In this document: positions 43,279-44,550 of the stretch, one piece after another
How positions within the stretch are numbered: the stretch's first letter is position 1
Layout: every line of letters begins with the position of its first letter
Assembly (NCBI GenBank): GCA_035250975.1
Contig: DATFEP010000067.1
Location: 32,001-96,000 of the forward strand
Length of the DNA stretch: 64,000 nt
Source of the DNA: Nitrososphaeraceae archaeon
GTDB taxonomy: Archaea; Thermoproteota; Nitrososphaeria; Nitrososphaerales; Nitrososphaeraceae
Direction: 5' to 3'
Notes under the pieces: model-generated
The model's database searches: none
Seen by the model: only the letters and a program-made list of their open reading frames with translations
Told to the model about the DNA's origin: nothing
Made by a program: the position numbers and the translations under genes

Positions 43279-43901
43279 TTGATTTATTCGTTTATGTATA
43301 ATACGACATGGGACAGTAATTACAATAACACTGGTAATGAAAATGAATTAAGTTTTACTGTAGATGCACAAATAGATAATAAAAATACAATAATTATAGA
43401 TTCTATTAAGCAACAGGATCAACTAAGAAATAAGGGGTTTGGAGAAAAAATAAAAGAAAAATTTATTATTGAAGCGTATGAAGCTCTTTTTCTTTTATAT
43501 AACAAAAGATTAGTTTTAAAAAAAAAAAGAAAAAATTAGATTTTTCACAACTTTCTGAAATGTTATTGAAGGATGACATTTCAATATTTACAAAATTTCT
43601 CATATATAGAGATCTAAGAAGTAGAGGATACGTAGCGAAAGAAGGATTCGGATTTGGTTTAGATTTTCGCGTTTATGAAAGAGGAGAATATCTCAAAAAG
43701 CCTGCTAAATACGTAGTTTTTGGAATTAATGAAGGATTGAATATTCAGAGTAGCCATTTATATGACAATGTTAATTCCATTGAGAAAATGGGAAAGGAAG
43801 GAATAATTGCTGTAATTGAGAGAAGAGGAGAAATAATCTATTATAAGATAAATAGAAAAAAATTTGAAACTAATAGCAAATCGATTTCACTTGCTCAATA
43901 A
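43279..43901 (+). CDS. endA: tRNA splicing endonuclease subunit (probably structural/beta), interrupted by a -1 frameshift at an A11 run
   Basis: N-half GFGE....YEALFLL and C-half FLIYRDLRSRGY..K.G..FG.DFRVY...AVIERRGEIIYY lie in different frames, joined at 43518-43528. Confidence 0.85.
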
Positions 43902-43995
43902 TAAAAAAAGTGCAATTAGTAGATGTAAAAATAAAAAAATTAAAAAAATAGAGATAGCTACATTTTTTATATATGATATTCTGTGTAAGATGATC

Positions 43996-44085
43996 TGTGG
44001 GATAATGATGATCACGATAGTCCCCCTATTATATGGGATTATTCCCTGTAAAATGAAGAGAGACACCGGACTACTGAGTTCCATA
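43996..44085 (+). ncRNA. candidate box C/D guide sRNA with an internal hairpin
   Basis: C ATGATGA 44005-44011; D'-like CTGT 44046-44049; C' ATGAAGA 44053-44059; D CTGA 44074-44077; 8-bp terminal stem including G-U pairs; TTTATATA at 43966-43973. Confidence 0.7.
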
Positions 44086-44088
44086 AAA

Positions 44089-44164
44089 TGCTCCGACCGG
44101 GATTTGAACCCGGGATCGTCGCCTTGAGAGGGCGAAATGCTTAACCGGACTACACCATCGGAGC
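44089..44164 (-). tRNA. tRNA-Glu(CTC)
   Basis: GCTCCGA/TCGGAGC-A; TCGCC-CTCTCAA-GGCGA; CCGGG-TTCAAAT-CCCGG. Confidence 0.95.
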
Positions 44165-44307
44165 CCAACAACAATAGAAACCTTCTCAATATAAAAATTC
44201 TGTTAGTGCTAAGTAAAAATAAATTTAACGAAGTTGATCTTGGTTCGAACGATTAATGAAATATTAAGGAAATTAATACTTGAGAAAATAAATTTTATAA
44301 CTGAAAT

Positions 44308-44550
44308 TTAGACAGTTATAACAGGGGCTTCTAGTGGTTCAACGGTTTTTTTGGTTTTAGCACGTAACTTTGCTTTATATTTTAGATTACGTGGTTTAGT
44401 TCTCAATCGATAACCACAACATGGGCACCACAATCCATCCCATTTTATGAAGATTTCACAAATTTGGCAGCGTTTTTGTCCGCTGGCATACCTTCCAGAA
44501 CCTACTGGTTTCTGAGCTTTATGTCTAACGCAAATACCTTTACAAGTCAT
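44308..44550 (-). CDS. small basic zinc-ribbon protein (thaumarchaeal type)
   Basis: CKGIC...KRCQICEIF...CPCCGYRLR. Confidence 0.8.
   Translation of the reverse strand: MTCKGICVRHKAQKPVGSGRYASGQKRCQICEIFIKWDGLWCPCCGYRLRTKPRNLKYKAKLRAKTKKTVEPLEAPVITV

Follow-up and report, generated by a model that had tools for sequence, protein, structure and literature searches.

A family-wide box C/D guide RNA gene of Nitrososphaeraceae and its predicted target in large-subunit ribosomal RNA

Archaeal box C/D small RNAs (sRNAs) are typically 50–60 nucleotides (nt) in length. Those of Sulfolobus, Pyrococcus and Pyrobaculum, as described in PMC7994747, PMC4644070 and PMC6009581, possess terminal C and D boxes with kink-turn (K-turn) geometry, an internal C′ box and an antisense element ending at box D; they follow the N+5 rule, by which 2′-O-methylation falls opposite the fifth nucleotide upstream of box D, are encoded in intergenic regions under their own promoters and have targets in domain II of the 23S ribosomal RNA (rRNA). 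The canonical double-guide form has a GA-containing D′ box (NUGA) shortly before box C′, with which it forms a K-loop, and two spacers of ∼12 nt. Guides directed to transfer RNA (tRNA), such as the pre-tRNA-Trp intron guide (Cm34/Um39) and the Sulfolobus guides to tRNA-Gln (U34/G18), are complementary to a tRNA loop over 9 nt, form a Watson-Crick pair at N+5, carry an orphan second guide and are linked to a tRNA gene (PMC7994747, PMC7668247). In eukaryotic single-guide box C/D small nucleolar RNAs (snoRNAs), with their degenerate C′/D′ boxes and internal stem, only the D-side guide is canonical. Yeast U14 is composed of domain A, with a proven complement in 18S rRNA, the Y-domain hairpin and domain B, in this order. 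Here we describe a box C/D-type small RNA gene of ∼90 nt at positions 43996–44085 (+ strand) of a 64,000-nt stretch of DNA from a Nitrososphaeraceae archaeon (contig DATFEP010000067.1; the whole stretch is referred to below as the window, and coordinates are positions within it). The assembly from which the window was taken comprises 2.49 Mb and is 94.6% complete.

The gene encodes a real, family-wide and architecturally unusual box C/D guide RNA of Nitrososphaeraceae. Its function is probably, though by no means certainly, that of a single-guide RNA directing 2′-O-methylation of the large-subunit (LSU) rRNA at about position C796 (Escherichia coli numbering), action on the neighbouring tRNA-Glu not being its conserved function. 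A preliminary description of the locus had regarded the RNA as a box C/D guide with tRNA-Glu as its target: the guide RNA gene stands, with conserved boxes and a covarying stem, whereas its target is better sought in the LSU rRNA, where the fit is better conserved.

The RNA shares with the sRNAs of Sulfolobus, Pyrococcus and Pyrobaculum the features named for them above, the K-turn, the promoter and the domain II target being predicted in the present case. However, it is considerably longer, its spacers measure 14–15 nt rather than 12 nt, it is devoid of a GA-containing D′ box, a covarying hairpin is located between the D′ position and box C′, and the terminal stem is long (8–10 bp). Moreover, its 5′ spacer is occupied by an invariant element for which no rRNA or tRNA complement was found, and its host belongs to a mesophilic lineage. 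The same architecture (long terminal stem, 14–15-nt spacers, D′-C′ stem-loop, no GA-containing D′ box and one canonical guide) extends over 17 genera and is closer to that of eukaryotic snoRNAs, in which likewise only the D-side guide is canonical, than to that of textbook archaeal sRNAs. The order of parts also recalls yeast U14: C box, conserved single-stranded element, variable hairpin, guide, D box and terminal stem. Unlike in U14, however, no conserved rRNA complement was found for the element, which would be the second rRNA-complementary part of a two-domain RNA working in the absence of a D′ box; there is no sequence similarity, and the best snoRNA match in Rfam is below threshold. With the tRNA-directed guides the RNA shares the four features named above, but here the linkage is convergent rather than intronic or co-transcribed, the complement is lost when the tRNA changes, and the rRNA complement is equal or better. 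A literature search, which left the supplementary tables of sRNA catalogues outside its scope, returned no account of C/D sRNAs in Nitrososphaeraceae or Thaumarchaeota.

The evidence for a gene comes from comparison of related genomes. Blast searches seeded with positions 43940–44088 against 61 related genomes retrieved a segment extending from box C through the 3′ stem; it was present at E < 1e-6 in 20 of the 24 genomes of the same genus, and also in one other genus. In the alignment of the 20 loci the boxes are fixed and the letters of the terminal stem change in a compensatory manner (CTGTGGGAT/GTTCCATA, CTATAAAAT/ATTTTATAG, CTGCATGA/TCATGCAG), relatives providing a further variant, CAGGAT/ATCCTG, as well as several versions of the internal hairpin (CATG/CATG, AGCAC/GTGCT, TTCTGG/CCAGAA and TCTGCC/GGCAGA). 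Among these 20 sequences 84.2% of alignment cells are paired, compared to 30–52% when the 3′ partners are slid, and nine of the 14 pairs have changed on both sides. The corresponding values for 100 sequences from the whole family, the alignment of which was fitted to a covariance model and hence leans towards it, are 89.9% and 27–55%, with all 14 pairs changed on both sides: 10/10 in the terminal helix (88.1% of cells paired) and 4/4 in the hairpin, helix 2 (94.9%).

A covariance model of the RNA (R1) produced exactly one match in 141 of 151 Nitrososphaeraceae genomes, representing 17 of 18 genera, and in 99 of the 102 family genomes with a completeness of 90% or more; the 141 include three genomes flagged unpublished, without which the count is 138/148. 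No match was obtained in 107 genomes from 19 other families of the order under strict filters, which may miss diverged homologues, and in an order-wide sample matches were confined to the genome under study and 12 of 13 other family members. The RNA is single-copy and family-wide even at loci where both neighbouring genes differ.

A motif parser accepted 124 of 132 loci, 118 of them distinct in sequence (L020, L235, L252, L253, L256, L260, L288 and L292 failed the pattern). Box C (consensus RUGAUGA), expected close to the 5′ end, and box D (CUGA), expected close to the 3′ end, are retained with known tolerated variants in 118/118 distinct sequences, a count that is partly circular in that the parser demanded box-like words; the covariance-model alignment gives the same picture. 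Box C occurs as ATGACGA (49), ATGATGA (30), ATGAAGA (26), ATGATGT (10) and other forms (3). Its fifth letter is associated non-randomly with the second letter of box D (C:C 37, A:T 21, T:T 18, T:A 14, T:C 11, C:T 11, A:C 5, C:A 1); A is accompanied by T in 21 of 26 cases, and 14 of the 15 CAGA boxes go with T as the fifth letter of box C. Such a correlation is predicted by the third pair of the C/D K-turn. In a K-turn of this class a 3-nt bulge is followed by tandem G-A pairs and then by the pair between these two letters. Here the terminal stem directly abuts box D (CTGA), so that three unpaired nucleotides precede the GA of box C, the K-turn itself being a prediction from sequence.

The guide CACCGGACTA can pair perfectly over 10 nt with the segment UAGUCCGGUG of LSU rRNA (LSU 879–888 of the closest complete relative). 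This segment is the single perfect complement of 9 nt or more in the small-subunit (SSU) and LSU rRNAs of that relative, and the predicted duplex energy is −19.0 kcal/mol, whereas no other site of the entire operon goes beyond −15.2 kcal/mol. The 26 nt surrounding the site are identical in all seven LSUs compared, which come from five genera. Guide positions 2–9 are perfectly Watson-Crick complementary to the segment in 115 of the 124 parsed family members, on the assumption that the segment is invariant, as in those seven LSUs. An antisense element is expected to reach 8–9 nt or more, to end 1 nt from box D and to have a Watson-Crick pair at N+5; this holds for 10 nt in the LSU rRNA and for 9 nt in tRNA-Glu. 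The preliminary description had itself allowed that a longer perfect match to rRNA might show the tRNA match to be incidental, and exactly such a match exists (10 nt versus 9 nt), which makes the rRNA the likelier conserved target. It thus appears likelier that the LSU rRNA segment, rather than tRNA-Glu, is what holds the guide constant.

By the N+5 rule the methylated residue would be C883 of the closest complete relative, opposite a G of the guide. In a MAFFT alignment with the annotated E. coli 23S gene this residue corresponds to C796, within 1–2 nt. The target presumably lies in or beside helices 35/35a and ∼6 nt upstream of the Gm805/Am807 cluster of yeast 25S rRNA. These helices of domain II are named among the hotspots of guide-directed methylation of archaeal 23S rRNA in the study by Dennis et al. 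(PMC4644070).

The following course of events can be envisaged. The ∼90-nt RNA of the box C/D class would be transcribed independently, and its boxes C and D, held together by the terminal stem, would fold into a K-turn expected to recruit L7Ae, Nop5 and fibrillarin. The 8–10 nt directly upstream of box D (..CACCGGACUA) would then pair with the invariant domain II segment, bringing the fifth paired nucleotide, the cytidine at ∼C796, into the methyltransferase site, where it would become 2′-O-methylated, most likely during ribosome assembly. Protein binding and modification are both predictions, the latter drawn from the N+5 rule. The presence of a C′ box without a GA-containing D′ partner suggests that the particle is probably single-guide and asymmetric, and the invariant element may either pair with the guide (UAGUCC/GGACUA) or bind some other partner. 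Cm17 in tRNA-Glu would be a possible by-product or secondary activity in this organism.

Several observations weigh against this explanation. The duplex is short, with eight conserved pairs; position 10 of the guide carries no information, being T in 76, A in 30, G in 11 and C in one of the 118 sequences, and only the 77 with T or C can pair there with the LSU G. The first 6 nt of the guide can pair inside the RNA and may thus be masked. In the absence of a canonical D′ box and with spacers of 14–15 nt rather than 12 nt, a standard archaeal two-site particle may not form, and by minimum free energy (MFE) the sequence taken singly does not surpass its shuffled versions (z = −0.61). The rRNA sequences were taken from relatives, the assembly under study containing half a 16S gene and no 23S gene. 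Models of fibrillarin (PF01269) and Nop5 (PF01798) found no match in this assembly, which was the only one searched for Nop5. Of 81 genomes of the order, 80 encode fibrillarin, among them all 18 other family members, the assembly under study being the exception; since all of the 80 others have it, the absence of the two proteins is most likely due to an assembly gap. Furthermore, some contigs from RNA libraries bridge into the tRNA, and one of low depth runs upstream into the promoter-like sequence of a related strain. Finally, the 9-mer shared with tRNA-Glu leaves the latter as a possible true substrate in this organism.

The tRNA match is the main ground for a different explanation. The sequence ACCGGACTA (44065–44073) recurs on the + strand at 44144–44152, inside the gene for tRNA-Glu(CUC), and the + strand RNA is exactly complementary to the D-loop segment TAGTCCGGT (UAGUCCGGU) of this tRNA. 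The reverse complementarity of the 9 nt before box D was correctly recognized in the preliminary description, and so was the N+5 arithmetic, with G44069 opposite the first D-loop cytidine, C17. Taking both strands of the assembly together, the 9-mer occurs five times (in the RNA, in tRNA-Glu(CUC), in a second tRNA-Glu and at two coding-like places), so that coincidence would not be expected to place a match in the neighbouring gene of 76 nt.

The RNA might exist for methylation of C17 in the D-loop of tRNA-Glu, in a guide-plus-target locus possibly linked to endA and tRNA processing, with the rRNA match being incidental; we regard this as unlikely. Several observations speak for it. The perfect 9-nt complement with a Watson-Crick N+5 pair is found in both tRNA-Glu genes of the genome, the second one, tRNA-Glu(UUC), being located on contig C40 (11748–11841, − strand), and in its precursor the complement spans the 3′ intron-exon junction. 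Archaeal C/D sRNAs with tRNA targets are known, typically with one orphan guide (PMC7994747), and for Sulfolobus acidocaldarius a G18 modified under guidance within a D-loop, as well as a probable 2′-O-methyl group at position 17 of tRNA, has been reported (PMC7668247). In 23 of 31 loci, from 13 of the 17 genera sampled, a convergent tRNA-Glu(CUC) is found at a distance of no more than 462 nt, which in 19 of these loci falls below 50 nt. Comparison of the loci, along the lines of a check proposed in the preliminary description, reveals a frequently retained neighbour, but the adjacency is lost in several genera: the tRNA gene is missing from the fetched flanks (∼600–1500 nt downstream) in g2 (4/4 loci), g35 (2/2), g4 (1/1) and one of two g9 loci.

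As the two candidate targets have this 9-mer in common, it takes comparative data to tell them apart. The behaviour of the match where the neighbour is retained argues against such a role. A stricter pattern placed tRNA-Glu(CUC) within ∼120 nt in at least 65 of 124 loci, and the D-loop is perfectly complementary to guide positions 2–9 in 42 of these 65 and imperfectly in the other 23 (TAGGCCGGT in eight, TAGTCCGGC in five, and TAGTTCGGT and others). In genera g6, g5 and g3, where position 17 or a residue next to it has become U, A or G, the guide shows no compensating change; its N+5 letter is always G, even opposite U17 in g6 and some members of g3 and opposite A17 in a g5 genome. Relatives of tRNA-Glu(UUC) were collected by BLAST with the gene, given that the pattern GTAGTCCGGT, applied to five genomes, misses sites split by the intron as well as the LSU site, and AGTCCGGT matched too often. 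Among these five genomes, G029 and G028 retain the complement in the mature D-loop, whereas G142 and G099, with A and U, respectively, at position 17, do not. G142 thus has no tRNA-Glu able to form a Watson-Crick pair at N+5, and yet its guide is intact. Complementarity that includes N+5, which a tRNA-directed guide should keep across species, is therefore not maintained. In addition, residues 18–19 of the D-loop are buried in tertiary pairs of the folded tRNA.

The guide-plus-target locus beside endA that had been suggested thus holds good as regards the perfect 9-nt match in this genome, but the match drifts under an unchanged guide and the link to endA is positional only. The match to tRNA-Glu is probably a side effect of the rRNA target sequence; in this organism tRNA-Glu may serve as an additional substrate, but the RNA can be explained without it. 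The tRNA-Glu(UUC) gene is itself unusual: its intron is situated inside the D-loop, after GUGUAG of the D-arm, and measures 16 nt here and more in other genera (L134–L137), and ARAGORN miscalled the gene as a tRNA-Arg with an intron in the anticodon loop.

The second unusual part of the RNA is its 5′ half. The invariant element occurs as GATAGTCCCCCTATT in 71 of the 118 distinct sequences, its AGTC core having been fixed by the parser. No GA-containing D′ box was found upstream of box C′, the position symmetric to box D being occupied by CTAT, which in most sequences is preceded by a 14-nt interval from box C. The spacer between C′ and D is 14 nt in 50 sequences, 15 in 47, 13 in 12, 16 in four, 12 in three and 19 in two, so that neither the D′ box nor the pair of ∼12-nt spacers of the canonical double guide is present. 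The element has no convincing complement in the rRNA operon or in its own genome, where even with up to two mismatches no full-length complement of the 17-mer was found.

Candidate roles for the element were considered and rejected. A hairpin within it (GAUAG-UCCCC-CUAUU) is contradicted by an uncompensated U-to-C change of the third letter in g35, g37, g3 and g4. Guiding to LSU 1067 (AGGGGGAC, 8 nt, −17.9 kcal/mol) is incompatible with the variants CCACC, CCGCC and CACCC (19/118 distinct sequences), which break the duplex at an invariant LSU site; moreover, in 4.4 kb there is an even chance, roughly, of finding an 8-mer match by coincidence. The site at LSU ∼2866 (13/14 pairs) varies between genera without co-variation, and as extra base-pairing near the D target the element achieves at best −10.6 kcal/mol in LSU 821–960, which is weaker than in many random windows. 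When CTAT is read as a D′ box with the guide GAUAGUCCCC, rRNA sites reach at most 8/10 pairs and matches in the genome are scattered, none of them in a recognisable tRNA or rRNA. The GA at 44016–44017 is only 4 nt from box C and is not invariant (GG, TA or AA in some genera).

What the element may offer is a partner for the guide. Both RNAalifold and the single-sequence MFE structure predict a helix between UAGUCC of the element and GGACUA of the guide. Its pairs are invariant except for one, and this sixth pair is T:A in 44 sequences, C:G in 20 and T:G in 19, i.e. pairable in 83 of 118 and not in the remaining 35; we consider these counts suggestive only. The two invariances would be explained together if the rRNA fixes the guide and pairing with the guide fixes the element.

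The same observations could be accommodated by an RNA that does not methylate at all but acts as a K-turn RNA of another kind, be it as a chaperone of folding or in a regulatory or structural role, with AGUCC and GGACU forming an internal helix or a two-strand clamp similar to those of U3 or of domain A of U14. The predicted pairing, the pairable sixth position, the absence of a D′ box and a conservation of the element beyond that of any normal orphan guide are all compatible with this idea. We nevertheless consider it improbable, as the five invariant pairs are without covariation, the C:G cases come mostly from a single genus (g35), 30% of the sequences are unpaired at the variable position, and no conserved second rRNA complement was found, whether at LSU 1067, at LSU 2866 or near the D target. 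It is similarly doubtful that the element, by mimicking the first six nucleotides of the target (UAGUCC), gates or times a guide that serves both LSU ∼C796 and C17 of the two tRNA-Glu species, including the 3′ splice junction of pre-tRNA-Glu(UUC). If this were true, ribosome assembly would be linked with the maturation of tRNA-Glu beside endA.

That there is no RNA gene here at all, but a conserved DNA element (such as a region serving both endA and tRNA-Glu as terminator or promoter) or chance box-like words in an A/T-rich spacer, is highly improbable: although no Rfam family reached its gathering score (the best non-tRNA match on the + strand being snoU31b, 18.1 bits versus 37, E = 0.84) and box-plus-stem motifs are nearly as frequent in the reversed genome as in the real one (five versus seven), two helices show compensatory changes over 17 genera, a single copy persists throughout the family though both neighbours differ at some loci, the locus with its 8-bp stem ranks second among the seven motif matches, and it is covered by contigs from RNA libraries.

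Those contigs, from four runs of three studies, cover 44000–44173, and none covers 43850–43961; DNA carry-over or read-through may account for them. In the four runs contig ends fall near 44000–44008, although contigs cannot reveal the ends of transcripts. They thus lend weak support to expression. A scan of the genome with a regular expression for canonical 12-nt double-guide sRNAs gave no match, which, like the box-plus-stem scan, says little about sRNAs without long stems. The top match of the latter scan is a 40-nt stretch of the same assembly (contig C16, ∼963–1002, + strand; GTGATGA ... CCGA, with a flanking 11-bp stem), which may represent another K-turn RNA, of minimal form, or have arisen by chance.

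The features of the locus are collected in Table 1. Boxes C, C′ and D, the 8-bp terminal stem and the TATA-like stretch upstream of it are all where the preliminary description had placed them. Three of the eight pairs of the stem TGTGGGAT/GTTCCATA are G-U, and 3 nt separate its 3′ end from the tRNA-Glu(CUC) gene. The TATA-like stretch is a predicted promoter element; a comparable A/T block (ATAAATTTATTTAT-like) is found at an equal distance upstream in the 20 genus-level loci. The D′ side fared differently. The D′-like CTGT (44046–44049) turned out to be the 3′ side and flank of the covarying hairpin GGGA/TCCC, with other letters in other species. The 9-bp hairpin GATAGTCCC/GGGATTATT said to interrupt the D′ region is not kept in relatives, its left arm being part of the invariant, single-stranded-looking element and its right arm varying freely. 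The D′ guide proposed on this basis was thus wrong, with neither a conserved box at CTGT nor conserved hairpin arms.

Table 1. Features of the small RNA locus and its convergent neighbour in the window.
Feature	Position	Strand	Remarks
TATA-like A/T-rich promoter element	43964..43975	+	∼25 nt upstream of the terminal stem; read from the sequence
Terminal stem, 5′ strand TGTGGGAT	43996..44003	+	Pairs with 44078–44085; covaries
Box C, ATGATGA	44005..44011	+	A44004-A44005-T44006 would be the 3-nt K-turn bulge
Variable spacer TCAC, 4 nt	44012..44015	+	4 nt in 107/118 distinct sequences; letters vary freely
Nearly invariant element GATAGTCCCCCTATTAT	44016..44032	+	Core AGTCC 44019–44023; CTAT 44026–44029 at the D′ position
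Small covarying hairpin GGGA-TTAT-TCCC	44035..44046	+	Between the invariant element and box C′
Box C′, ATGAAGA	44053..44059	+	ATGAAGA in 108/118 distinct sequences
D guide GAGACACCGGACTA	44060..44073	+	Positions 1–10 upstream of box D predicted to pair with LSU rRNA UAGUCCGGUG, 1–9 with the tRNA-Glu D-loop; N+5 = G44069
Box D, CTGA	44074..44077	+	CTGA 50, CCGA 50, CAGA 15, CCAA 3 of 118
Terminal stem, 3′ strand GTTCCATA	44078..44085	+	Partner of 43996–44003
tRNA-Glu(CUC), convergent neighbour outside the RNA gene	44089..44164	−	ARAGORN; Rfam tRNA 61.6 bits; candidate secondary substrate

Upstream of the RNA gene, endA, coding for the tRNA splicing endonuclease (43279–43901, + strand), is distributed over two reading frames: an 86-amino-acid (aa) open reading frame (ORF) carries the N-terminal domain and a 113-aa ORF the catalytic domain (Pfam), and the two meet at a run of A residues (43515–43540). 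The same split at the same A-run was observed in two other species (L002, 839–1461; L014, 684–1431), in one case in an assembly of ten contigs. It may reflect programmed frameshifting, transcriptional slippage or the production of two polypeptides rather than an assembly error. On the other side, downstream of the tRNA-Glu promoter region, an 80-aa ORF (44308–44550, − strand) displays CxxC...CxxC zinc-ribbon-like spacing and a basic tail; it matched no Pfam family. In the assembly under study (G000), which is devoid of LSU rRNA, the retained 5′ half of the 16S gene is located at a contig end, and ARAGORN reported only 22 tRNAs, many tRNA genes probably having non-canonical introns.

For target prediction the locus contains a caution, namely that a match between a guide and its neighbour can be the shadow of an rRNA target that resembles a tRNA D-loop. 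Most of the catalogued box C/D guides come from hyperthermophiles, and the present one belongs to ammonia-oxidising Nitrososphaeraceae, which are soil archaea. Its architecture bears on the origin of asymmetric small nucleolar ribonucleoproteins and on whether an archaeal Nop5 dimer can work with one K-turn. For the family itself it provides a concrete and testable predicted methylation site in domain II of the 23S rRNA of culturable organisms.

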